Of a stretch of 64,000 bases of DNA, positions 2,843-52,755 are shown piece after piece (positions within the stretch are counted from its first letter, which is position 1; every line of letters starts with the position of its first letter). The notes beneath the pieces were generated by a model. It ran no database searches and was not told the DNA's origin. It saw only the letters and a program-made list of their open reading frames with translations. Made by a program: the position numbers and the translations under genes. The stretch is from UHGV virus genome UHGV-0141727; one strand, 5' to 3'. The stretch comes from a virus.

Positions 2843-3802
2843 TCATCCCCGAAAGCCCTCCGGAATTGACCAGTCTTCCCGGTCAAATTCAGACCGATAG
2901 CCACGCTGTTTCATCTGGTCAAATGCTTCATTGATGGTTGCACATCCCTGGGAACCAGAATAATCCATAGAGAAATCCAGGGCGCTGGATCGTTTGGGCT
3001 TATTCACCGTGGTAGCACTACGTATCCATGCAAATTTTTTTGCCAGTTTTTCAGCGGTACGATACAGAGCCTGCCGTTTTGCGTACCCCTCGTCTGAACG
3101 ACGCTTTGCAGCTCTCGCTTTTGCCGCCGCCAAACAGTGGTTGGTATGTTCTTCCCTGATTACTGTTTTTTTATCCAGCAAGCCATTATCCGCTTGAGAA
3201 CTATCTGCTGGTGAAGCCTTTGGCTGAACCGCGCATGATCTTTCTCTTCTTTTGGCTATAGAGTGACTCTTATTTTCTATTGGCTGTTCATTTTGAACAT
3301 GGGGGGACTTGTTCAATTTGAACAGGGGGTGCCCAGTTTCAAAAAAATAACGAACCTTTGAAATCAACTGCTTAACCAGTTTTGTGGCGTTGGCAAATTT
3401 GATGCCCTGCTTACTCCCTATCTCCATTGCTACATGAATGAAGTGGAGAAATTGTGTTGTAAACCGGTACACGTTACACACCTGAGCATTGTTATTCGCT
3501 ACCTGATGCTGCTTAACAAGCATTCCGCACTTCGTCGCTTCGGTAAATGCCCGGCGCACAGTAGAAATACTGCGTCCTGTAATCTCGGACATATCAGCAT
3601 ATGAGCGACGGATCATGTATTCATCGGTAGCTCCTGCCAGGTTGGCGAACTCGGCAATAATGGCGCTATGTGAAGGGGAAAGAAAACCGCTATGACGAGC
3701 AAAAAAACTCAACTGATGACCTTTGATTTTTTTGTGGTATTCAGTGTTGTTTTTATACTCAGAAGTGTTGAAAGTTACTGGAACTGAATTTAAAATACTC
3801 AT
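2843..3802 (-). CDS. winged-HTH DNA-binding protein (possible replication or regulatory protein)
   Basis: ORF; HTH-like segment SEITGRSISTVRRAFTEATKCGMLV; 9-bp inverted repeat GTATAAATC/GATTTATAC in its promoter region 3828-3856. Confidence 0.35.
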   Translation of the reverse strand: MSILNSVPVTFNTSEYKNNTEYHKKIKGHQLSFFARHSGFLSPSHSAIIAEFANLAGATDEYMIRRSYADMSEITGRSISTVRRAFTEATKCGMLVKQHQVANNNAQVCNVYRFTTQFLHFIHVAMEIGSKQGIKFANATKLVKQLISKVRYFFETGHPLFKLNKSPHVQNEQPIENKSHSIAKRRERSCAVQPKASPADSSQADNGLLDKKTVIREEHTNHCLAAAKARAAKRRSDEGYAKRQALYRTAEKLAKKFAWIRSATTVNKPKRSSALDFSMDYSGSQGCATINEAFDQMKQRGYRSEFDREDWSIPEGFRG

Positions 3803-5012: not shown

Positions 5013-6698
5013 TTAATTATTGCTCATCACAAATTTTGCAAAGTTGATTAATTGTTCTTGCGTCCAGTTTTCCGGATCGTCACCGGACGACAACGGCGCG
5101 GATTCGTACATACCATGCTCGTTGTTTTGCTCTGATTCATTCGCCTTAAACTCTTTGATCATTACGTTGAGAGTGTCATCGTCGATACGAAGCTGTTCGG
5201 TGAACAGATAGCGCATAAACGCGTCGCTACCCGCCAGTTTCGGGTTGTTCTGGATCTGGTCCATTATTTGCGAGATGACAGCTACGAAGTTGGCGCGCGC
5301 ATCCAGCTCTCGGTTTTCCTCTTCCTGGATAGCTGTGTTCATTGAGTTGAATTGCACGTCATAAGGACGGTTTTTTTCGGTGTAAACCTTCCCGTATTTA
5401 TAAGCGAGGTGAATGTCATGAAGCCGATAAATAGTCCGCTGGGCGGCCTGTCTGATCCAGTTCGCGCGTAATGCGGCCTGGATAGCTGTTTGCTGCCAAC
5501 CGCCTTCTCCAAGCCCCCCACTCATCTGATCAGCCCAGCCAAGCATTGTTGCGTCAATGCCGAGGCTTGCCGCGAGCTGTCGGAGATGAAACATAACGTC
5601 TTCGATACCACTGATATCTGCGGGTATAGATTGCGTATCAATGGTGATCCCGTTCTTCCCATCCCCCATGACAGGTATCAGATGGTTAAGTACAGATGGG
5701 AGAGCATTAGAATTAATTGACCGTTGCGCTACGAGGTCGCTATGGCGCTTCAGTGCCTGGCTGACCCCGCGCGTATAATTCGCCGCGTTTACCGGATCTA
5801 TCGTGTTCGTTGTGAGTGCAATCAGGCGATCAATTTTTGCAGCGTTGTTTCGCGTTGCTTTCAGCGCAGCAAGCGCGGCACATAAATTCAGGTAGGGTTC
5901 ATAACTGTATTCAAGAAACGACGTACCGTAGTTCTGTGTCTCCATTAACGGCTTGTCCTGCTGTTCACTAAGCAAGGAATAGCCTGTAGTGCCGTAAGTT
6001 ACTGGCATTACTTTATGCTGAGGCGTCCAGTACGGGTTTTTCATGGAAACCAGATTCCACGGCTCGGTTATAACTCTGCGCAAAGTATGCGTGTCCAGAA
6101 TGTAATCACCGCTGAATCCGACAAGTTGGCTACCGCGATAAAACTCCTGAACGAAATGAGGGAGCGTGTAATAGCTCGACTCAATTCCAGTTATCCCCTT
6201 CCCTTGCTCTGCATATGGACGGATATACGACACACCGAAAATAGCCATGATCATGGCCCACGATGGAAGGCCATCATTAATCATTGAGCTTAAATCAGCG
6301 GTCAATTCCTCACATCGACTTACAGCCTCCTTATCCGCCCCATTTTTCGGAGCGAGAATAAATGCGAGGCCTGTTTTTTTTGATGGAGCCAGAGAATGCG
6401 CAATGTGAATGTTTAATGCTGTGGAGATAGTCGGACTTTTCGCCATCGTCTCCAGTATGTTGTATTTTTGCAGGCGGTCACTCGGTAATTCTGCCGATAT
6501 AGATACTGTATCCGCCGCGCTTGTCATTCCATCGCTATTGCTCCCCAGGATGCCTGGACGCAAGGCGGACAGGCCAGAACGAGCAACGACGCTATGCCCG
6601 CTCGCAAATACGACCGGATCGGCAGGCGTAACATCACCACCGCTGAAGGCTTTCTTCAATGCCGACAGAAAGCCCTTGTTTTTGTCTTTCGTTGCCAT
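5013..6698 (-). CDS. portal-like virion protein
   Basis: ORF 561 aa, portal-sized, first gene of head operon; assignment by size and synteny only. Confidence 0.35.
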   Translation of the reverse strand: MATKDKNKGFLSALKKAFSGGDVTPADPVVFASGHSVVARSGLSALRPGILGSNSDGMTSAADTVSISAELPSDRLQKYNILETMAKSPTISTALNIHIAHSLAPSKKTGLAFILAPKNGADKEAVSRCEELTADLSSMINDGLPSWAMIMAIFGVSYIRPYAEQGKGITGIESSYYTLPHFVQEFYRGSQLVGFSGDYILDTHTLRRVITEPWNLVSMKNPYWTPQHKVMPVTYGTTGYSLLSEQQDKPLMETQNYGTSFLEYSYEPYLNLCAALAALKATRNNAAKIDRLIALTTNTIDPVNAANYTRGVSQALKRHSDLVAQRSINSNALPSVLNHLIPVMGDGKNGITIDTQSIPADISGIEDVMFHLRQLAASLGIDATMLGWADQMSGGLGEGGWQQTAIQAALRANWIRQAAQRTIYRLHDIHLAYKYGKVYTEKNRPYDVQFNSMNTAIQEEENRELDARANFVAVISQIMDQIQNNPKLAGSDAFMRYLFTEQLRIDDDTLNVMIKEFKANESEQNNEHGMYESAPLSSGDDPENWTQEQLINFAKFVMSNN

Positions 6699-16700: not shown

Positions 16701-17046
16701 TGGTTTTCACTCCATGTTCGTAATTAGCTTCAAGAACGATGATTGTCGTTACACCAGCTTCTACAGGAACAAGAACATCACTGACTTGCTGCACGGATAT
16801 CTGACATTTACCCACGTCAATTGAAGCCGCCCCTTTTCCCTCTGTTTTCTCGGATGTAATCCGCACAAACAGACCATCCCCTGGCACCGGGTCAAACCCA
16901 CAGTACACTCCGGGCAGAACGATATTTTTCATCTTCCTGTTTAGAGCTTCGGTGCTATACAGCTCAAAGTATTGCATGTCTGCAATTAGTGGAGCGGAAA
17001 TGTCCGAAGATAAGGTGACAATATTCTTTACTTTATCTGCGCACAT
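13777..17046 (-). CDS. tail fibre protein
   Basis: 1089-aa ORF with SPxFTGxPTAPT motifs and repeated GNxxTTGNAATATKLQTARTIGGVxFDGSANI units. Confidence 0.75.
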   Translation of the reverse strand: MCADKVKNIVTLSSDISAPLIADMQYFELYSTEALNRKMKNIVLPGVYCGFDPVPGDGLFVRITSEKTEGKGAASIDVGKCQISVQQVSDVLVPVEAGVTTIIVLEANYEHGVKTSQVDSSSDISAARIIALVDEEIASNQIELCRVIVPDNAQAVTADMISTEYRANRAVGVEFSSALDSDEEYKAATPLAISTLNKLKAPVDSPEFIGIPKSPTPEQGTNSTQIANTAFVQAAITALIDGSPSALDTLKKIADAINNDPQFSQTINDALALKAPLLSPAFTGVPTAPTASQGTNNTQIATTAYVRAAISALVGSSPEALDTLNELAAALGNDPNFATTMTNALAGKQPLDATLTALAGLATGANKLPYFTGTDTVAQTDLTSVGRDILAKTSTLAVIQYLGLRELGTSGEKIPLLSTANTWSARQTFSAGITGTLTGNADTATKLKTARKINGVAFDGSADITLTPEDLGLTDIASQAGNAVQRSGDTMGGQLKIGTINALRIFNQAFGLIFRRSEEYLHLIPTNEGEGENGDIGPLRPFSINLRTGLVSIGNGVKVGGGITGTLTGNADTATKLKTARTIGGVSFDGSANIDLPGVNKTGNQSTTGNAATATKLQTARTIGGVAFDGSANINLPGVNIAGNQNTTGNAATATKLQTARTINGVKFDGSANISIPTITSRGRVTALTSTTQGATTGLQMYEAYNNGYPSAYGNVLHLKGATAAGEGELFIGWSGTSGAHAPVHVRSRRDTDTASWSEWAQVYTSKDSIPGVNTTGNQNTTGNAASATKLQTARTIGGVSFNGTANIDLPGVNKTGNQSTTGNAATATKLQTARTIGGVSFDGSANINLPGVNIAGNQNTSGNAATATKLKTARKISGVAFDGSADITLTASHVGALPTTGGTVTGEIISSSQNAIRLTYNNNYGFLITNTGYSFQISTTGQNVNGDVVYTPLKIDGGDGRVELGRADGHVRVMGNLSAAGQITPGNYSNFNTKYQAKNTAYANIHGWHKDTSTKVMMQWGTIAAVTPGSVVKFPTSFPESCAAVVISPHSGNAVNAILYTYNNSATGFTVKSSSTDKIYAQYVAYGY
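14400..14740. repeat. tandem ~87-bp coding repeats within tail fibre gene (block 2)
   Basis: repeated DNA and peptide units; similar to block 15000-15370. Confidence 0.5.
15000..15370. repeat. tandem ~87-bp coding repeats within tail fibre gene (block 1)
   Basis: repeated DNA and peptide units. Confidence 0.5.
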
Positions 17047-24134: not shown

Positions 24135-24188
24135 TGCGGTAATTGTTCAACGTCACTAACTGGCTGGTAGCCGTATAACGTCAGGTTA

Positions 24189-24869
24189 TTAATAATGGTT
24201 AGCCATCCATTCAGATCTAATTGATGGGATAAACTCTCTATTGAGAAATGGGGCGTACAGCGTGGTAGTCACGTCTGCACCCTCCTTAGCGTTTTTGCAG
24301 CGTTGTGGCGGTAGGATCAGGCGGCTTGTGCCTCGTTCAATAGCCATTTTTAAGCCGTGGCGAAGGTCTTTCTGCATGAGCTGAATGCGAGCTACCAGAG
24401 GGGTAAACTCGGTTTCCAGTGCCATGTTTTCAATGATATCGAATCGTCTGTTTGCAGCTTGTGTGAAGTCTTCTGGATCGTCGTTCAGAGATGTACACAA
24501 GGCCAACTCAGCTATGCGGAGACGAGCAACCTCAGCACTGTACTCTGGAGTTTTCATATCAGGCAAAGTGGCGCGCATACGTTCAAGCAATTCAGCGCCT
24601 TTCCCTGTTAATGGTTTAAGCGTCCACTCGGTTGGTACTCCGTTTATAGGGACCATAGTTTTAATAAACGGCGGGACAGTCAGGATTTCTACCGTTTCGG
24701 CAAGGTCTGAAAGGTTAATATCTGCGTGATGAACGTTTCCACAGTGACCACACTCGTATGAGTAAGTCATTACGGCATCTGGTCTGGAATTGACAAAGAT
24801 CCACCAAAGCGCGGTTCTGCGATCCTGAACTGTCCAGTTTGAGCTGTCGTTAATTTCGCCGTCTTGCAT
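24189..24869 (-). CDS. hypothetical protein upstream of tape-measure gene (start uncertain)
   Basis: ORF 24189..25136 extends into the origin region; first ATG at 24869. Confidence 0.3.
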   Translation of the reverse strand: MQDGEINDSSNWTVQDRRTALWWIFVNSRPDAVMTYSYECGHCGNVHHADINLSDLAETVEILTVPPFIKTMVPINGVPTEWTLKPLTGKGAELLERMRATLPDMKTPEYSAEVARLRIAELALCTSLNDDPEDFTQAANRRFDIIENMALETEFTPLVARIQLMQKDLRHGLKMAIERGTSRLILPPQRCKNAKEGADVTTTLYAPFLNREFIPSIRSEWMANHY

Positions 24870-25081
24870 GGCGTTGAGGTATTCTGTTGTGGTTGCCTCG
24901 TCTTCTGCCGGATTGATGTCTGAATATTTCAGGGCATCTTTCACAGTAGGTGCATGAAACTGAATTTCTATTTCAGGCTGTGAAGGCAATGGGAATTTGG
25001 GAATGTTCAAGGATTCCTCCAGAAAAGTCGGTACTCGTTTGGCTGGAGGATAGGGAGTGTGTGATTTTGACTTTAACCTAT

Positions 25082-25190
25082 TTATCCACAGGGTAGATCC
25101 AATAAATAGATCCCAAAGAGAACCAGTAAGATCCAAAGAAGATCCCGGATCGCTGCGAGCCGCGCCATCACTGGCCTAAATGGAGATCAA
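25082..25190. promoter_or_regulatory. origin-proximal region: DnaA box TTATCCACA plus cluster of six GATC sites
   Basis: perfect DnaA box at 25082-25090; GATC sites within ~100 bp upstream of iterons. Confidence 0.55.
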
Positions 25191-25295
25191 CATTGACTAT
25201 GTGCGATTTAATGTTGACTATGTGCGATTTTATGTTGACTGTACGCGATTTAATGTTGACTATATGCGATATAAACATTGACTGTATGCGATAAT
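25191..25295. repeat. five direct ~19-bp iterons at ~21-bp spacing upstream of repA
   Basis: units (C/A)(A/T)TTGACT(A/G)T(G/A)(T/C)GCGAT repeated 5 times. Confidence 0.75.
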
Positions 25296-25372
25296 TCTCT
25301 CAGCCCTCAGACGGCTGTGGATAAGTATCTTTCATTTGGCTATAAAGCCCCGTCAATCAAGGAAATAACAGG

Positions 25373-26257
25373 ATGGTAGATGACAAAAAAGGCTTTCTGA
25401 ACGTTGAGGAAATATCAGGGAATACCGGAGAAATCCACAGCTTAAAGCCTAACAATAATAGCACTATTCAGCCGATAGCTTTGTTGCGGCTTGGGGTGTT
25501 TGTTCCCACATTGAAATCTACCAGTGTTGCTTTACGTCGCAAGAACGCCGGTTTAACTAACTCCACTGATGCGACAGAAGAACTGTCCAGCCTGAAGATT
25601 GTAGAGCAGGAAGGGTATCAGGGTATTGAGATTCATGGGCCACGTCTGGATATGGATACTGATTTTAAGGTGTGGATAGGCATTACATCTGCATTGTTTG
25701 ACTATAAACCAGATAATGATGGTGTGATCACCCTGACATTCTCTGAATTTGTGGATCGTTGCGGTTATCCAAGGAAGCGGCTGTCCAAGGCTTTTCGCAA
25801 GAGCATTGGCGACTCTCTAACGCGTATTCAGCAGACGTTGCTGAAGTTCAACTTGCCCACCAGCAAAGAACATGTTCGTTATATCCAGATGAATTTATTG
25901 GCATTTAGTGAACTTGATACTGAAAATGACATTATAAGAATCCAACCGCAGAAGCAGTTGTCTGAGTTGTATTACGTTGACTATAAGCGAATATTGAAGC
26001 TCAAAATGCTCGATAAACTTGGCAGGAAAGAGACAGCCAAGGTGCTTTATACGTTTTTCGAAGCGTTACCTTCAAACCCTGCGCCAGTGAGTATTGAGCG
26101 CCTTCGCGCCAGATTGAACCTCAAATCATCGGTTAGCGTTCAGAACAGTGTGATTCGTAAAGCCATGAAAGACTTGGAAGCTGTTGAATATCTTAAATTT
26201 TCAGAGATAAAGAATGGTCGGAAAATAGGTTTCCAGATCCATAAACGAAATCCATAA
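25373..26257 (+). CDS. repA: replication initiator RepA (P1 RepA-like)
   Basis: 294-aa ORF recalled to resemble P1 RepA in conserved blocks (VQPxAL(L/M)RLGVFVP, GPRLDMDTDFK, YTFxExLP) (recalled from memory, not searched); flanked by iterons. Confidence 0.8.
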   Translation: MVDDKKGFLNVEEISGNTGEIHSLKPNNNSTIQPIALLRLGVFVPTLKSTSVALRRKNAGLTNSTDATEELSSLKIVEQEGYQGIEIHGPRLDMDTDFKVWIGITSALFDYKPDNDGVITLTFSEFVDRCGYPRKRLSKAFRKSIGDSLTRIQQTLLKFNLPTSKEHVRYIQMNLLAFSELDTENDIIRIQPQKQLSELYYVDYKRILKLKMLDKLGRKETAKVLYTFFEALPSNPAPVSIERLRARLNLKSSVSVQNSVIRKAMKDLEAVEYLKFSEIKNGRKIGFQIHKRNP

Positions 26258-26487
26258 CATTGACTGTGTGCGATTCCAAGCGTTGACTATACGCGACAAA
26301 CATTGACGCTGGCGGATTTAGTTATTAACTTTTTCACATGATCAATGGATAAACCAGCTATTTCATTGAGTATTTGTCGCTTATAGTCAATCTTTCCTCA
26401 TTTCTTGTCGTGTGTAGTCAATGTTTTGTGATCGGGATCGAGTACAGTCAACATTAGTTGTAAGCCATTTCGCCTATAGTCAACATT
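26258..26487. repeat. downstream iteron array (three direct, four inverted copies)
   Basis: TTGACT/AGTCAA cores of the same iteron family in both orientations. Confidence 0.6.
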
Positions 26488-26504
26488 TCTCCATCAGCAG
26501 TCTT

Positions 26505-26795
26505 AAGGGCAATTTCTACACCTCTCTGTAGGTGTAGGATTTGCCCTTAAAGATGGGAGATTGAGGGCAATTCTTACACCATTAGTGAGTTGGTTGGAGC
26601 TTTAACGGCTAACATCATTTGTAATTTATTGATTAATAAGTAATGTGTAAAAATCACCCTCAGATAGCATCGTATGTTATAGCTATTTTTATAGCACACC
26701 TGTTAAGTGTTTTTTGAATGTAACTCATTGATTTTGTTGTGATGTGTAAAAAATGCCATCATTGACGTAAACAGCAGGTGTAGAAATTGCCCTCA
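26505..26795. repeat. four copies of a 16-bp motif GGGCAA(T/A)T(T/C)(C/T)TACACC in alternating orientation around an AT-rich spacer
   Basis: copies at 26505-26522, 26531-26548 (inverted), 26563-26580, 26778-26795 (inverted). Confidence 0.4.
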
Positions 26796-26837
26796 AGTTT
26801 GCCCCTTCCCCACCTTCTCGCACTTTAATATTGCATT

Positions 26838-27575
26838 TCAAAACTTGATCACGTTGCTGGCGGCGCTTTTAAGTGCGCTTGTTGCTAAACCAGCAGCTCC
26901 ATTGACTAATGCGGACAGGCCGGAACCAGCAGATGTGTATCGCTGGAACGTGATCGGATAGGACAAGAATTCGGACACCTGATCACGTGAGCGGCTGATC
27001 TCTCCTATCTGAGTAGGAAATACACGCATTTCCTCTTCCAGCTCTTTCCCGCCTTCCTGTGTAACGCGGTATAGCCTGATATTCATGAGATAATCTGGCG
27101 GCAGGTTTAGCGTACCATCGCTATTGGTTACACGGGCGCGGCGCTCCTTGAACCAATTCATTATTTTGCCGTCTTCTGTGTCTCTGACCGTCATTGTTAC
27201 CGGTCCGGCGGTTACGTGCGTTGGCTTATTGAACTCGACGCTACCAATGATTTTGCTTTCTGTTTCAATATTCCCGCTACTGTAAGTTATGTCCTTAACG
27301 AACATATCAAAGCCGCTTAATCCGTCTACATCTACCGTCCACTGCCAGCCCTGGGCATAGCGGATACGCATAGCCGTAGCAACTACGTTCTTTCCGTAAG
27401 CGATGTCATTGCCATAGCTCCCACTAACGCCACTGCCAGACACCGCTCTATCCAGAATGTCGCTGATAAGGTTGCTGGTGAATGATTTCGCGCTAAACGA
27501 TACCGCACTGGCTAGCGTTTGCGTTGCAGCACTAAAAATACTCACGTAGCCCTCCGTGTTAAAAAATGGTAGCAC
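26838..27575 (-). CDS. hypothetical virion protein
   Basis: ORF 245 aa in tail/head gene block. Confidence 0.3.
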   Translation of the reverse strand: MLPFFNTEGYVSIFSAATQTLASAVSFSAKSFTSNLISDILDRAVSGSGVSGSYGNDIAYGKNVVATAMRIRYAQGWQWTVDVDGLSGFDMFVKDITYSSGNIETESKIIGSVEFNKPTHVTAGPVTMTVRDTEDGKIMNWFKERRARVTNSDGTLNLPPDYLMNIRLYRVTQEGGKELEEEMRVFPTQIGEISRSRDQVSEFLSYPITFQRYTSAGSGLSALVNGAAGLATSALKSAASNVIKF

Positions 27576-36957: not shown

Positions 36958-37917
36958 ATGATGCGCATTTTTATCGACGATGGTTCTACCAATATCAAAA
37001 TGCTGTGGGAACAAGACGGGGAAACTCGAACCCATATCTGTCCGAACAGTTTTAAACGTGGATGGTCCGCCACATTTGGCGCAGGAAAGCCGTTTAACTA
37101 CATCATTGATGACGAAAAATATTCATATGACTTGATCTCGCCGGATGTGCTGCCGACGAATAACGTTGAATGGCAATACAGCCCGCTTAATGTGCTTGCT
37201 GTTCATCATGCCCTGCTTACAAGTGGCATTGAGCCTCAAGAAGTGGAAATAGTTGTCACGTTGCCACTGGCAGAGTTTTATGACGACGACGCACAATACA
37301 ACATGAAAAATATTGAGCGGAAAAAGGCCAGCCTGATGCGACCAGTCACCCTTAACAAAGGTCAGGTTTTTACTATCAAAAAAGTGACTGTGCGCCCGGA
37401 GTCAATACCCGCAGGGATCGGTCTGTGCGACAGCCTTGTGCCAGCGCATTCTGTGCTTATTGTTGATCTTGGTGGGACTACTCTGGATGTGTCGATGGTC
37501 GCCGGGCAAATGACCGCCGTTTCTCGCGTATTTGGCGATTCTAATCTCGGCGTTTCGCTGGTAACTAAAGAGGTCAGACAGGCACTTGCAAAAGCGAATA
37601 CCGAAACCTCTAATTATAATGTCGATCAATTAATCATTAATCGTGATGATGAGGATTATTTGACCGACAATATTAACGATCCGTCTGCTATTGATGATGT
37701 TAAGAAAGCCATTTCGTCAAGCATAGAACGACTCCGTACACGCGTACTGGATGTGATCAGTGATTTCAAAGGATACACGCATGTTATGGTCATTGGTGGC
37801 GGCGCGCCGCTTGTTGCTGATGCTATCCGTGAGCAGGTAAACATTCGTGACGATAGGTTTTTCGTTGCTGATGATCCACAACTTGCTCTTGTCTATGGTC
37901 TAAAATCTATCGGTTGA
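36958..37917 (+). CDS. parM: actin-like plasmid segregation ATPase ParM (StbA)
   Basis: ORF 36901..37917; ATG 36958 with GGAG RBS; recalled resemblance to R1 ParM in N-terminal blocks (FIDDGSTNIK, ICPNSFKR, VIGGGA) (recalled from memory, not searched). Confidence 0.8.
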   Translation: MMRIFIDDGSTNIKMLWEQDGETRTHICPNSFKRGWSATFGAGKPFNYIIDDEKYSYDLISPDVLPTNNVEWQYSPLNVLAVHHALLTSGIEPQEVEIVVTLPLAEFYDDDAQYNMKNIERKKASLMRPVTLNKGQVFTIKKVTVRPESIPAGIGLCDSLVPAHSVLIVDLGGTTLDVSMVAGQMTAVSRVFGDSNLGVSLVTKEVRQALAKANTETSNYNVDQLIINRDDEDYLTDNINDPSAIDDVKKAISSSIERLRTRVLDVISDFKGYTHVMVIGGGAPLVADAIREQVNIRDDRFFVADDPQLALVYGLKSIG

Positions 37918-37927
37918 TGAGGTTGCC

Positions 37928-38293
37928 ATGTCTCAGGAACGTCGAAAAGTATTGTTTTATCTTCGTCCTGGTCTTAACGCCAGTGAGCAATATGCTGATG
38001 CAAAACTTGAGGGCCATCCATTAAGAGATCGCAATGATATGGCGCGCACAGCGATGCTTGCAGGTATCGCTCTTGGCGAGGTTGATAGCAGATTACCTCC
38101 CATGTTGGCATCGCTTTTATCCGGTGATAATAGCCCTGAAGTGATCAGAAAAATGCTGGTTTCATTTCTTGAAATTTCGCCTGAAGTTCGGGAAGCCTCT
38201 GAAGGAAACACCTCTGTCTCAGAGGATGTAAAAAAACCAGGCGTTCCGAAAAGCCGCTCTGCACAGAATTTGGCAAACTCACTCCCTGATTAA
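37928..38293 (+). CDS. parR: ParR (StbB)-like centromere-binding adaptor
   Basis: 121-aa ORF immediately downstream of parM. Confidence 0.55.
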   Translation: MSQERRKVLFYLRPGLNASEQYADAKLEGHPLRDRNDMARTAMLAGIALGEVDSRLPPMLASLLSGDNSPEVIRKMLVSFLEISPEVREASEGNTSVSEDVKKPGVPKSRSAQNLANSLPD

Positions 38294-38329
38294 CCAATCT
38301 ACATCTTCAAAGGCTGCAATTTGCAGCCT

Positions 38330-38578
38330 TTTTTATACCGTTATGGTTCTGGTTTGGTGCTCTTTTAGTACCAAAACGGTGTTGTTATGGTGCTGCTTTG
38401 TATCTGGTTCCACTTTGGGGCTGATTTCGTGTTAAACAGGATGCAACAGAGGGCAAATTTAGAGTGTTTAGTGTTATACTTTTGCAAAGCATAGTGACTC
38501 CACTATAGAGCCAAAACCGCATCAATAAGGCTTCTGTTTGGAACCAGTTTGATACCAAAATAACACCGAGGAACGGAT
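38330..38578. repeat. centromere-like repeats (ACGGTGTT(A/G)TT units) upstream of parA
   Basis: multiple direct and inverted copies of AACGGTG/GGTGTT motif. Confidence 0.45.
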
Positions 38579-39220
38579 ATGATTATATTGGTAGTCAGCC
38601 AAAAAGGTGGCTGTGGAAAATCAACCACAAGCGTAAACATCTGTGCGGAGCTTGCCCGCGAAAATAAGGATGTAGTGTTACTAGATGCAGACAAGCAAGG
38701 AACAGCTGCCCGCTGGGCAGCTGACCGTAACACGGCAGAGGTTTCTCCTGTAATTCATTGTGTCCAGAAGTTTGGTAATATTCGAGAAACACTTCTCGAT
38801 CTGGATAAGCGTTATGAATTTGTAGTTGTTGATACAGCCGGGCGCGATAGCAAAGAGATGCGTACAGGCATAACCGCTGCAGATATTGTGTTGGTCCCAT
38901 TCAGACCATCTCAACCAGATTTAGACACGCTGGCACACTTTGTTGAAGTGTTTGAAGAGGCTTTGGACCTGATGCCTAATCCTAGCATTAAGGCGTTCGC
39001 AGTCTTAACAATGGCCCCATCCAATCCGGTTGTGAATGAAACCAATGAGGCCAAAGAGTACCTAGCTGAATATCCGCAACTGAAGTTGCTGAAAACCATC
39101 ATTCGTGATCGTAAGGTTTACCGCGATTGCATGGCTGAAGGGAAGGGCGTTGTTGAGATGGACAACGGGAAAGCTAAAGGTGAAATCCAGATGTTGGTTA
39201 AGGAGTTATTAAGTGATTAA
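38579..39220 (+). CDS. parA: small Walker-type partition ATPase ParA (type Ib)
   Basis: 213-aa ORF with deviant Walker A KGGCGKST. Confidence 0.7.
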   Translation: MIILVVSQKGGCGKSTTSVNICAELARENKDVVLLDADKQGTAARWAADRNTAEVSPVIHCVQKFGNIRETLLDLDKRYEFVVVDTAGRDSKEMRTGITAADIVLVPFRPSQPDLDTLAHFVEVFEEALDLMPNPSIKAFAVLTMAPSNPVVNETNEAKEYLAEYPQLKLLKTIIRDRKVYRDCMAEGKGVVEMDNGKAKGEIQMLVKELLSD

Positions 39221-39500
39221 GCCTCGTAAATCGGTAAAAGCCCCCGAAGTAAAAGACCCCGATCTTGAACGCCGAATTGAGGATTTTGCCAGTAAGGCTG
39301 ATTTGGTGCCGGGTGAGCAACCAGAAGACAACAAAGTGCTCGATAAGGACGCCCCACGTGATTTTAAATCCATTCGTGTTGGCTTCAATGAATACGAGTA
39401 CCAGGTACTTGATGCGTTAAGCAAAAAGCATAATCGCAGCAAATTGAATATGATCCGCCATGCTATTCTCATGCTTGCAGAGTCTGAGGATACAAAATGA
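39213..39500 (+). CDS. ParG-like RHH centromere-binding protein
   Basis: 95-aa ORF overlapping parA stop; C-terminal RHH-like segment. Confidence 0.45.
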   Translation: MIKPRKSVKAPEVKDPDLERRIEDFASKADLVPGEQPEDNKVLDKDAPRDFKSIRVGFNEYEYQVLDALSKKHNRSKLNMIRHAILMLAESEDTK

Positions 39501-39506
39501 CGCCGG

Positions 39507-39610
39507 AATAACACCGTTTTGGTTCCATGTGTTATTTTGAAGCTATTTTGATGCCTTTTTAGTACCAGAATGGTGTTATTAGTGTACCGTAACGGTGCTT
39601 GTTTGATGTT
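39507..39610. repeat. centromere-like repeats downstream of partition operon
   Basis: AATAACACCGTTTTGG, AATGGTGTTATTAG and AACGGTG copies related to the upstream set. Confidence 0.4.
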
Positions 39611-39635
39611 ATAAAAGCCCCATATGGGGCTTTTC

Positions 39636-45403: not shown

Positions 45404-45540
45404 AGGTCGATTTATCAGGTATAGAGGGGAATTGTCTGGAGATTGTGATTTGTTTGTCGCCAGGTAATTTCTTTAGATTGATGAGGCGAAATCTATCGGA
45501 GGTGCGGTATCATTGTTCGGTCAGAACTTAAGGAGAAACA

Positions 45541-46080
45541 GTGAGTCAGGAAGTTGAAAAGTGGCGAGCATTTGAACACCCTGATGGTGTTATTCGTGAT
45601 TTGTCATTTCTTGACGCTCATCAGGCTGTGTTTGTTCAGCAACAAGAAGGAAAGCAACCGATAGAGTATCGCTTTTGGGTTACGTACTCTTTTCACTGCT
45701 TCACAAAAGACTATGCACACCAGACTGAGGAAGAGAAACTGGCGTTAATGTACCACGCCCCTAAAGAGTCTCGTCCATTTTGTGAGCGTCGCTATAATCT
45801 TGCCAAACTTCACTTAAAAGAGGCAATTCTGTCATTGTCGGAAGGTAAGGTGATCCATGCCGGATACGGAAGCTATGCCGTTATTGAGGTAAATATTGGG
45901 GAGGGTAACAAGGAGTATTATTTTGTTGCGTTTAAGGCTTTCAGGGAAAAGAAAAAGTTGCGGTTACACATCACTAGCGCCTACCCGGTATCAGAAAAAC
46001 CAAATGGCAGGTCAGTGAAGTTTTTCGCAATCGCATACAATCTGTTAAGGAACAAACCGCTTCCTAAGCCACCAAAATAA
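45541..46080 (+). CDS. orphan opposite-strand protein of unknown function
   Basis: 179-aa ORF, GTG start with AAGGAG RBS, own terminator. Confidence 0.4.
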   Translation: MSQEVEKWRAFEHPDGVIRDLSFLDAHQAVFVQQQEGKQPIEYRFWVTYSFHCFTKDYAHQTEEEKLALMYHAPKESRPFCERRYNLAKLHLKEAILSLSEGKVIHAGYGSYAVIEVNIGEGNKEYYFVAFKAFREKKKLRLHITSAYPVSEKPNGRSVKFFAIAYNLLRNKPLPKPPK

Positions 46081-46082
46081 CA

Positions 46083-46104
46083 AAGCCCACCTTAAGGTGG
46101 GCTT
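46083..46104. terminator. hairpin AAGCCCACC/GGTGGGCTT directly after 45541..46080
   Basis: 9-bp stem; T-tract on minus side. Confidence 0.45.
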
Positions 46105-46305
46105 CGCCAGAAATTATTTTCTGGTATTCAGAACGCCATTACCGGACTTTGCCTTGACCAAGTATCACAACTGGTTTGACCTGTTATGATAGCTGGTTGC
46201 GGGATGTCTGAATTTCTTCAGTCTGCTGCATCCTCGAAGGTTTGGTTCAACATGTACCATTCCTTCACCGTCATAATAGTGTACTATTCACGTCCTTGCA
46301 AACAC

Positions 46306-47511
46306 TTATACATTTTTTACGTTGTTCTTCACATACGCCATGAACATCTTTTCGGCTTGTGCTGGTGGTGTTCCTGCCATAACAAGCGCATCAATGAACG
46401 CCTGCTTCTTCAGTGCGAACTGATCAGCAAGGCGTTGCTGAAGTTCCTTGTTTTTCTGCTTCTCCCGTTGCAAAGCTGCTTCTTTTGCCGCTGCCCGTTT
46501 TTTCTGTGCGTCGGATAACTTTCTGGCCCTGGTCAGTTGGTCACGCAGCTTGTCGATCTTACCGTTGTCCTTTGCCAGTTTTGAGCTTAAAGCGGCCTGG
46601 CGTTTCTGATAGAGCTTCCATTCACGTTTAGCTGCCTCAACATTCGTTTTGCTGCTACGGTTTCGATTGAACGCCTTCTCGTCTTCTTTTGTGAAGTGTT
46701 TTGTCGTGCGGCGGCGATCGTCACCAAAGGCAACTTGCTTTGCAGCTTTTTGCAGGGCGCGAGCAATACTCATCTGCCAACTGGCAGACTGTAGTCGTGT
46801 CATTGAGTGGATCACATGTTTACAGGCGACGCCTTGCAGCTTAGGGTTGCGAACTTTTGGATAGGCGTATTCTTTTGGCGGGGCCAGGGCAAAGTTACCC
46901 GCAGTGGCGATGTAGCGATACCAGTATTGATGGCGACCGCAGTCACAGTCGAAAGACACTCGCCCGGCACACAGTGATTTTGTGACTTTCAGGGCTGATT
47001 TATCGTCTTCTGCGATGTCATCGACCATCTGATCCCATTCTTCAAAACGTACCCGGACAATGTGGTGCTGGTGAACGGATATATCGGACGCTTCCACGCG
47101 GATATTAATCACATTGTGACGAAGAGATACGGGCGTAGCTCTTTTGATACCAGAACCGTCGTCTACGGCGTTATTTGCTCGCTTAATATCGATAGCCTGG
47201 CTGGACGCTACCAGTTGTGCGTATGTGATGCCAGCCGTCTTGCTGTCATATTTTTCGCGTGCTTTGCTTCGCAGCTTTTCGAAGCCTTTCAGATCGTCAC
47301 GCGTAAAGAACGTGCCGCCTTTCTTTTTCCCCAGCTTAAGAATGTCTTCGGCTGATTTATTCCTAAGCCTGCCCGGCGTGAGTGTCCTGTGCGCCTGGCG
47401 GCGTTTGCGGTTTTGCTCTTTCCTGATGAGTTCAAATACGCGTGTGAAATCCTTAGAGGACAGACCGTTAGTGATATATCGCCCGTCCTGATTTTTCAGG
47501 AAGTCAGGCAT
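46306..47511 (-). CDS. SWIM-type zinc-finger protein with basic coiled-coil C-terminus
   Basis: 401-aa ORF; CxC...CxH pattern in FDCDCGRHQYW...ACKHV. Confidence 0.35.
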   Translation of the reverse strand: MPDFLKNQDGRYITNGLSSKDFTRVFELIRKEQNRKRRQAHRTLTPGRLRNKSAEDILKLGKKKGGTFFTRDDLKGFEKLRSKAREKYDSKTAGITYAQLVASSQAIDIKRANNAVDDGSGIKRATPVSLRHNVINIRVEASDISVHQHHIVRVRFEEWDQMVDDIAEDDKSALKVTKSLCAGRVSFDCDCGRHQYWYRYIATAGNFALAPPKEYAYPKVRNPKLQGVACKHVIHSMTRLQSASWQMSIARALQKAAKQVAFGDDRRRTTKHFTKEDEKAFNRNRSSKTNVEAAKREWKLYQKRQAALSSKLAKDNGKIDKLRDQLTRARKLSDAQKKRAAAKEAALQREKQKNKELQQRLADQFALKKQAFIDALVMAGTPPAQAEKMFMAYVKNNVKNV

Positions 47512-52459: not shown

Positions 52460-52620
52460 ACTAAGTTAAGGAGCTACCGCGTGAGGTTCCAATCTCAATG
52501 GCGGTAGCACTGACTGGGTTGGAACTACCGGCGTCAAAGGGAACCGGCCTGCCTTTCGGCAGCCCAGCCAGCACTACCATTGATCTCTGAGCTAAACGCT
52601 ACGTATGGCTGTGCGATGGC
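52460..52620 (-). ncRNA. candidate c4-like antisense/leader RNA region upstream of icd (inference only)
   Basis: ORF-free structured region between a terminator and icd; position analogous to P1 c4. Confidence 0.2.
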
Positions 52621-52624
52621 ATGA

Positions 52625-52651
52625 CACAAAAAAAGACGCTTTCGGCGTCTG
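52625..52651 (-). terminator. intrinsic terminator AGACGC/GCGTCT plus T7 on minus strand
   Basis: hairpin immediately followed by TTTTTTTGTG. Confidence 0.55.
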
Positions 52652-52755
52652 TGTCGCCTTTGACATTATCCGGGGTTCCAATCCCGGCACCCGTTTTTCT
52701 AAGGTGCCGTAGAAATATACCCCACGATAATGCCAGGGCGCAACTGTGTGTTTTC

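Follow-up and report, generated by a model that had tools for sequence, protein, structure and literature searches.

The locus described here raises the question of what a complete plasmid-type replicon does between the tail genes of a virus. It lies at positions 25082-26487 of a 64,000-nucleotide stretch of the virus genome UHGV-0141727 (one strand; the whole stretch is called the window in the following), and a preliminary description had listed its parts as a DnaA box, GATC sites, iterons, a repA gene and further iterons. According to our analysis, this cassette is a member of the P1 RepA/oriR family and very probably serves a D6-like phage-plasmid as its plasmid replicon, by which the prophage is maintained. 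It has entered a slot in which phage D6 and its relatives keep a replicon of a different type, and parts of the older replicon can still be recognized on its right-hand side.

The anatomy of the origin half was found as described, with one addition. The perfect DnaA box TTATCCACA is present at exactly the expected place, followed by the six GATC sites (25096, 25109, 25130, 25141, 25148 and 25185) and by five direct iterons, whose cores follow each other in steps of 21, 21, 21 and 22 bp (Table 1). The addition is a second perfect DnaA box, which is inverted, lies in the interval between the iterons and repA, and had been overlooked. These two boxes at the replicon are the only perfect ones in the window, with 0.48 expected in 64 kb. 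With six sites per 100 bp, the GATC sites form the densest cluster of the window, a number that is reached nowhere else within 100 bp. The iteron pattern TTGACTRTRYGCGA, when up to two mismatches are allowed, has 13 matches in the window, 12 of which lie in 25193-26483; 2.8 would be expected per 64 kb, and none of 100 shuffled sequences reached 13 matches. The spacer between the GATC sites and the iterons is G+C-rich (61%, versus 32% for the iteron block). Downstream of repA, seven more iterons in both orientations had been claimed, and these were identified as three forward and four inverted copies, the last of which ends at 26487. Six of them are clear and one, the forward copy at 26303 (TTGACGCTGGCGGAT), is degenerate; it is also kept in RCS47, a carrier of the related p0111-type replicon. 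The array opens on the repA stop codon itself, which its first iteron overlaps, and the same holds for P1 incA.

The repA gene itself, which had been placed after the origin iterons, is an intact open reading frame of 294 amino acids. In tblastn searches, its product is 41% identical to the RepA proteins of P1 and P7 over residues 24-294 (92% of the length, E about 1e-58). Identity is 85% at the amino acid level to RepA of RCS47, SJ46 and JL22, 44-46% to RepA of SSU5-like phage-plasmids and 43-54% to plasmid RepA/RepFIB-type proteins, and there is no detectable similarity to D6 orf42 (BLASTP E 3.7). The Pfam domain Rep3_C is recognized above threshold (26.5 bits versus a cut-off of 21.1, E 7.5e-6). 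An AlphaFold2 model, for which 33 homologues served as input, reached a predicted local distance difference test score (pLDDT) of 73.5, and when it was compared with the PDB by Foldseek, the top 41 matches were all iteron initiators with a probability of about 1.0, among them RctB domains 2-3, RepE, a TrfA-like Rep, pi, pPS10 RepA and MSBI1 WH1. The motif RLGVFVP is invariant across the 33 family members; it may coincide with the DnaK-binding region of P1 RepA. Within repA there is also an iteron-like 15-mer, TTGACTATAAGCGAA, at a place where the gene encodes VDYKR. It is the same in RCS47, including five third-codon positions, versus a third-position identity of 49% overall, and it may be a functional RepA site.

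The P1 oriR layout that had been proposed is supported by the RepA homology, by the alignment of the origins, by the equal spacing of the iterons and by the incA-like plan downstream. The elements come in the same order (DnaA box, five Dam heptamers, G+C-rich spacer, five direct iterons, repA, downstream array), the part of the origin that begins with the DnaA box, includes the AGATCC heptamers and extends to the GCCGCGCC spacer can be aligned with P1 oriR (68% nucleotide identity), and the spacing of the incC iterons towards repA is identical (21/21/21/22 bp). The iteron block, however, is only 47% identical and thus effectively unrelated. Furthermore, the window has one left DnaA box where P1 has two in tandem, its right-hand box is inverted, and it has six GATC sites versus five in P1. 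The module is not located beside parAB but between pmgB and tub, and the partition type is ParM/StbA. The suspicion that the iteron differs from that of P1 proved justified: the P1 iteron reads GATGTGTGCTGGAGGGAAA, whereas the consensus in the window is TTGACTRTRYGCGAT, and the core ATGTGTGCTGGAGGG of the 19-bp P1 iteron has no match with three or fewer mismatches anywhere in the window. Because its iterons differ from those of P1, the replicon is not IncY.

Comparison of the iterons with those of other RepA replicons showed that, unlike with P1, the consensus is shared with the replicons of RCS47, SJ46 and JL22, which have been designated as p0111 type (PMC9603915; PMC11165635). These are the nearest relatives, with 78% nucleotide identity over window positions 25082-26319 and a RepA of 294 amino acids in both. 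Besides the consensus TTGACTRTRYGCGAT, the iteron spacing and the extra GATC abutting iteron 1 are shared, and the common consensus would be the likely basis of a predicted incompatibility between the two. In contrast, the leader between iterons and repA is unrelated, the window has one inverted incA iteron fewer, and all occurrences of its cassette that were found are in the D6 slot of D6-like backbones, while p0111 has been reported only in P1-like elements, in the position upfA-repA-parAB (PMC9603915). Since synonymous sites of repA are saturated relative to RCS47, the replicon must have branched off long ago and was not derived from p0111 in recent times. The identity of 78% is well under what is usually needed for p0111 replicon typing, and we infer that the replicon would therefore not be assigned to the p0111 type. 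The label "IncHI1B" that MOB-suite gives to one p0111-type plasmid was treated as a naming quirk and was not used. RepFIB-type RepA proteins of large enterobacterial plasmids and of SSU5/pHCM2-like phage-plasmids belong to the same RepA family (44-49% identity along the full length) but are more distant and usually about 336 amino acids long.

The replicon of phage D6 (orf42; MOB-suite rep_cluster_1704) has exactly this slot and this orientation, pmgB being divergent and tub convergent to it, and follows the same general plan of a DnaA-like box, iterons, rep and downstream iterons. Its initiator is different, being RepE(F)-like (NCBIfam RepE, 280 bits), and so are its iterons (GGTGTAAGATTTGCCCTCAA), five of which lie upstream and six downstream of rep. 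The window has neither a RepE-like gene nor an upstream GGTGTAAGATTTGCCCTCAA array; of this replicon type it retains a stub of the gene (14 nt) and the downstream iterons, all six of them. By these comparisons the replicon can be classified as a member of the P1 RepA family that is neither IncY, nor p0111 by typing standards, nor the D6 replicon.

The position of the cassette is explained by its genomic setting. The structural genes of the window match those of phage D6 at about 73-89% nucleotide identity and in the same order, and the window is colinear with a complete circular E. coli plasmid of 94,191 bp (NZ_CP085065.1, CP085065 for short) at ~98% identity, or 98.7% at the replicon. On both counts, the window is a D6-like phage-plasmid. 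The preliminary description was right in stating that the replicon is embedded among tail genes: it lies in the gap between a pmgB-like and a tub-like gene, where phage D6 keeps its rep gene orf42 in the same orientation. As this gap is the normal replicon slot of D6 and its relatives, the location is no anomaly. It is also correct that the replicon does not adjoin the partition genes, since ParM/StbA, StbB and a small ParA-like ATPase are encoded at 36961-39220, about 10.5 kb away and placed as in D6. A repL-like lytic replication gene is located at 2843-3802. The true start of the pmgB-like gene is the TTG at 25008-25010; a 315-amino-acid reading frame reaching to 25136 was rejected as an artefact of reading frame calling.

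The borders of the module are sharp. In local blastn comparisons, homology of the window to the D6 backbone breaks at 25067 and resumes at 26482, and homology to the p0111-type replicons starts exactly with the DnaA box at 25082 and extends to 26319. A RepE-like cassette is still present in the slot of AP027414, which is 99-100% identical to the window in the flanks, and from 26493 to about 26840 the two sequences are 100% identical. We conclude from these alignments that 25068-26492, with the complete module between DnaA box and final incA-like iteron, took the place of a RepE(F)-like replicon's origin and rep gene. The direction of the replacement is clear because the old rep stub and six downstream iterons remain without a RepE-like gene in the window or in CP085065. 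The window-type cassette has two PLSDB carriers, versus about 110 PLSDB plasmids that carry a RepE-like cassette in the pmgB-tub slot. Within the backbone subclade of the window (tub and pmgC at least 98% identical; seven PLSDB plasmids), six plasmids have the RepE-like cassette (rep_cluster_1704) and CP085065 alone has rep_cluster_2164. The replacement is recent relative to the divergence of the backbone. In the second PLSDB carrier, CP042620, the D6-like backbone is not the same, and the left junction deviates slightly. At the right junction, RCS47 reads TTCTCATCAAGCAGT after its last iteron and the 3' end of the old rep gene reads CCTATCAGCAGT; that this short likeness reflects microhomology-mediated joining is speculative.

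A search for the donor yielded nothing closer than 78% nucleotide identity outside the D6-like context. Among species-representative genomes there was one locus (85% at the amino acid level), IMG/VR contained 44 loci of p0111 type as well as two at 100% amino acid identity, which share the D6-like context of the window, and the protein database held nothing between 85% and 100% apart from fragments. One RepA variant with 76% identity was found in a P1-like repA-parAB context. A second copy of the cassette in one record, suggested by a megablast hit in "2 places", was not reproduced by local blastn and is probably an offset alignment of iterons. Co-residence of window-type and p0111-type replicons was not seen in complete E. 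coli genomes, where only about 0.45 cases would be expected by chance.

That the cassette is functional is indicated by the way in which it is conserved. Between the window and RCS47, repA has a proportion of synonymous differences (pS) of 0.74, i.e. synonymous sites are saturated, and a third-codon identity of 49%, while the nonsynonymous divergence (dN) is 0.106. The non-coding segment of DnaA box, GATC sites and spacer is nevertheless 86% identical, and the iteron block 87%, whereas the leader between iterons and repA has drifted to 53%, which is about neutral. Low dN and conserved origin DNA against a background of saturated synonymous sites and a drifted leader mean that both RepA and its sites are under purifying selection. 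Relative to CP085065, RepA has no amino acid changes at nine nucleotide changes. On this complete circular plasmid we found no other plasmid-type rep gene, apart from the repL-like lytic one, and no RepE-like gene, and MOB-suite reports rep_cluster_2164 only. The cassette occurs on circular plasmids of ~93-95.5 kb in six of 5,426 complete E. coli genomes, as well as in two PLSDB plasmids and two IMG/VR contigs; it is thus being inherited. Taken together with the homology of the parts, this makes autonomous replication of the 25082-26487 cassette a strong inference.

Two explanations that assign replication to other sequences, or another task to the repeats, have to be weighed against these data. 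The cassette could be a non-functional or decaying remnant in a prophage that is kept by another replicon, either the repL-like one or an unrecognised origin. A repL-like gene is indeed present, but P1 repL is repressed in the prophage, and repA is intact, encodes an identical protein in different isolates and, like the non-coding origin elements, is under strong purifying selection. Due to the fact that repA is also the sole plasmid-type initiator on complete 94-kb circular relatives, we regard a remnant as very unlikely. Even less can be said for the repeats being operators or other regulatory sites for tail-gene transcription instead of replication iterons. They do lie between two tail-gene transcription units, and their TTGACT core is similar to a -35 hexamer. 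However, the same repeats flank the homologous repA of P1-like phages in the upfA-parA position, away from tail genes, the module travels as a unit with repA, and its layout is homologous to P1 oriR/incA, so that the probability of this explanation is close to nil.

Some results do speak against our interpretation of the cassette as a P1-type replicon, and they concern the protein, the promoter and the control array. In RepA, the Pfam domain Rep3_N scored just under threshold (20.4 bits versus a cut-off of 22.4), NCBIfam has no model that recognizes either the window RepA or P1 RepA, and a sequence search of the PDB with RepA gave matches at chance level only. The whole-chain template modelling (TM) scores in the Foldseek comparison were low (0.2-0.35), because the orientation of the domains to each other differs from that in the crystal structures. 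A scan of 24900-26900 with the sigma-70 consensus detected no promoter upstream of repA, and the number of sites was no higher than in shuffled sequences. The best candidate found by eye, TGGATA-17-TATAAA over DnaA box 2, is not conserved in RCS47, and inspection by eye of the iterons revealed no P1-like promoter within them. Finally, the incA-like array has fewer sites (seven, three forward and four inverted) than that of P1 (nine, 3 + 6) or RCS47 (eight, 3 + 5).

Knowledge of the mechanism of P1 oriR reportedly goes back to the work of Abeles, Chattoraj and Wickner. The mechanism proposed here was modelled on P1, using this work, the annotation of the P1 replicon and a general review (PMC6090056). 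By analogy, RepA dimers would be converted to monomers, probably by DnaK/DnaJ/GrpE, and the monomers would bind the five phased origin iterons, with host DnaA occupying the boxes on either side. RepA and DnaA together would then open the adjacent region with its methylated GATC heptamers; replication is therefore expected to require Dam methylation and to be followed by SeqA sequestration after firing. RepA bound to the origin iterons would probably repress its own promoter, and the seven downstream iterons would limit the copy number by titrating RepA and by pairing with the origin ("handcuffing"). It is thus a prediction from P1 that the replicon depends on DnaA, Dam and chaperones, and so are autorepression and handcuffing.

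The iterons to the right of the cassette have a different origin. Six sites of the RepE/D6 type, colinear with the six downstream iterons of D6, make up the downstream array of the displaced replicon without its cognate rep gene, and we refer to them as orphans. In all eight RepE-type carriers examined, the six downstream iterons are retained, and their positions are fixed. Among the seven plasmids with the new cassette, the number of orphans is six (the window), five, five, five, five, four and four, respectively, and no fewer than three different deletions, each between iterons in direct repeat, account for the losses. This fits a relic that decays under relaxed selection, in a small sample whose members are not phylogenetically independent. 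A RepE-like initiator arriving in trans could still be titrated by the surviving sites.

A further iteron pair is found in phage D6 itself (MF356679). At 16724-16764 of locus L002 (about 46925-46965 of MF356679), it has an exact 15/15 match to the core of the P1 (IncY) iteron, ATGTGTGCTGGAGGG, and a degenerate inverted partner, GTGGGTGCTGACGGGAAA. The same pair is present in mainstream D6-like plasmids (loci L060-L063, L065, L066 and L008, in the last at 5605-5644), with the downstream iterons of RepE type on one side and the stop codon of tub on the other, and the core is exact even in the divergent NZ_CP091837.1, whose surrounding sequence has changed. The window and AP027414 are without the ~45-bp segment that holds the pair. 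It may be the fossil of a still older IncY-type replicon that occupied this slot, an incompatibility determinant directed against P1, or an iteron-like hairpin that arose by chance.

Iteron arrays are classical determinants of incompatibility when cloned, examples being incA of P1 and incC of F. It is conceivable that the replicon works but that the orphan array at 26505-26796 serves as an incompatibility or exclusion determinant that titrates or handcuffs the RepE-like initiator of D6-type competitors, the swap itself having allowed an escape from incompatibility. All six orphans of the window are intact, and a RepE-type sister plasmid matches their region at 100% identity. In mainstream D6-like plasmids, a foreign iteron pair of P1/IncY type is likewise conserved beside the RepE-type replicon, and the P1 annotation labels incA and incC as incompatibility determinants. 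On the other hand, one or two orphans are missing from six of the seven plasmids with the new cassette as a result of the deletions mentioned above, while eight of eight RepE-type carriers keep all six, which is the pattern of relaxed selection, and the identity to AP027414 may just reflect how recent the swap is. Due to these losses, we consider an exclusion function unlikely and prefer the reading in which the orphans are a decaying leftover. In a wider version of the idea, the gap between pmgB and tub would be a hotspot of serial replicon replacement, in which orphan arrays are kept for a while as weapons against competitors with the old initiator. Two cases would fit, namely the RepE-type orphans of the window and the conserved P1/IncY-type pair of mainstream D6-like plasmids, but our confidence in this scenario is low as well.

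Table 1. Features of the replicon cassette and of the slot in which it lies (window coordinates)
Feature	Position	Strand	Basis and remarks
pmgB-like tail/baseplate morphogenesis gene, left flank of slot	24189..25010	-	RefSeq and called genes in CP085065 and L010 map to 24186-25010; D6 orf41 "similar to P1 pmgB"; weak Pfam T4_baseplate match
Left junction	25068..25081		D6-type backbone homology ends at 25067, p0111-type and P1 origin homology starts at 25082 (local blastn, junction alignment)
DnaA box 1, TTATCCACA, outer edge of origin	25082..25090	+	Same position in RCS47, CP042620 and P1 oriR
Four AGATCC(A/C) heptamers and GGATCG, giving five GATC (Dam) sites	25095..25151		Positional homologues of P1 oriR Dam sites 1-5
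G+C-rich spacer (GCTGCGAGCCGCGCCATCACTGGCC...)	25152..25188		Conserved with P1 oriR by alignment
Sixth GATC, abutting iteron 1	25185		Outside the five Dam sites homologous to those of P1
Five direct origin iterons, incC-like, core TTGACTRTRYGCGAT	25189..25296	+	Cores at 25193, 25214, 25235, 25256, 25278
DnaA box 2, inverted	25316..25324	-	RCS47 has TGTTGATAA there (one mismatch), P1 has CTATCCACA
repA, 294-amino-acid iteron-binding initiator, P1 RepA/RepFIB branch of the Rep3 (WH1-WH2) superfamily	25373..26257	+	Pfam, homology, AlphaFold2 model
Iteron-like 15-mer TTGACTATAAGCGAA within repA	25977..25991	+	Identical in RCS47 and CP042620
incA-like control array	26256..26487		Forward cores at 26260, 26283, 26303; inverted cores at 26376, 26407, 26437, 26469
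Right junction, ATCAGCAGTCTTAA, final four codons plus stop codon of the RepE-like rep that was displaced	26493..26506	+	Alignment with the 3' end of the rep reading frame of AP027414 and D6
Six orphan RepE/D6-type iterons, cores GAGGGCAAWTNTTACA	26505..26796	26505+, 26533-, 26563+, 26646-, 26745-, 26779-	Colinear with the six downstream iterons of D6
tub-like major tail tube gene, right flank of slot	26838..27545	-	D6 orf43 "similar to P1 tub"; 235-amino-acid gene called in CP085065, L010 and L011

Several other features of the element were noted in passing. In the stretch from the pmgB start to the left junction (25011-25067), all D6-like backbones share a conserved 18-mer, GGATAGGGAGTGTGTGAT, at 25048-25065, which reaches to the very edge of the cassette. 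Its left-hand neighbourhood is variable. The 18-mer occurs once in the window and may be a promoter or operator of pmgB or a preferred point of recombination. A P1 late promoter for pmgB was not found at the junction, as there was no match to the motif AAGTNACTT together with a -10 element (both taken from the LP23 annotation), and matches with one mismatch were at chance level. MOB-suite types the divergent D6-like RepE-type cassette of NZ_CP091837.1 as IncFIA, which agrees with the NCBIfam RepE match of D6 orf42, and D6-type prophages might interact with F-like IncFIA plasmids.

Elsewhere in the window, Rfam identified two separate genes for C4 antisense RNA, the immunity RNA of the P1 immI type (2475-2560, 2628-2680, 52497-52584 and 52629-52707). 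One of them has an a1/b1 target element and the other an adjacent isrK-like small RNA, and the first adjoins the repL-like gene; there are thus two immI-like regions in one element. A full-length Rfam match to the small RNA sroH (113 bits, 46082-46267, minus strand) lies inside a segment of ~0.9 kb (45451-46325) that stands where CP085065 has RelE/ParE-HigA toxin-antitoxin, helix-turn-helix and hypothetical genes. At 39498-39612, the window is without the glutaminyl-tRNA synthetase gene that D6 has between the ParA-like region and dmt (locus L002, 29456-31409), and tRNA genes were not detected in any part of the window.

A part of the system is known already. A protein identical to the window RepA is in NCBI under the name "RepB family plasmid replication initiator", and MOB-suite has the cluster rep_cluster_2164. 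A literature search found no description of this replicon or of the swap, although the D6 genome paper (Gilcrease & Casjens 2018) was outside its reach. Nothing was found on rep_cluster_2164, and the literature found on D6-like elements mentions only "repB with iterons". According to one report, replicon-typing schemes fail to pick up D6-like phage-plasmids (bioRxiv 10.1101/2025.09.12.675607). The lineage of the window, whose replicon is neither of the D6 type nor near enough to p0111, would probably be scored as an untypeable cryptic plasmid.

The mechanism of the replicon is ordinary, and the general view of iteron replicons is unchanged by it. What the locus adds is that the p0111/IncY family of RepA proteins now reaches beyond P1-like elements, which had been its stated limit (PMC9603915). 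It is also a clean natural case of modular replicon exchange, in which a whole cassette of origin, rep gene and control array was placed into a pre-existing slot with junctions that are tight to the base pair. The direction of the swap is readable from the leftover stub and the orphans, and the decay of the orphans by repeat-mediated deletion is visible in sister plasmids. The element is predicted to be incompatible with P1-like prophages of the p0111 type, compatible with P1 (IncY), and to show one-way interference with D6-type prophages. Should the orphan iterons indeed act as a weapon, the phage-plasmid would escape the incompatibility of its relatives and yet stay incompatible towards them.

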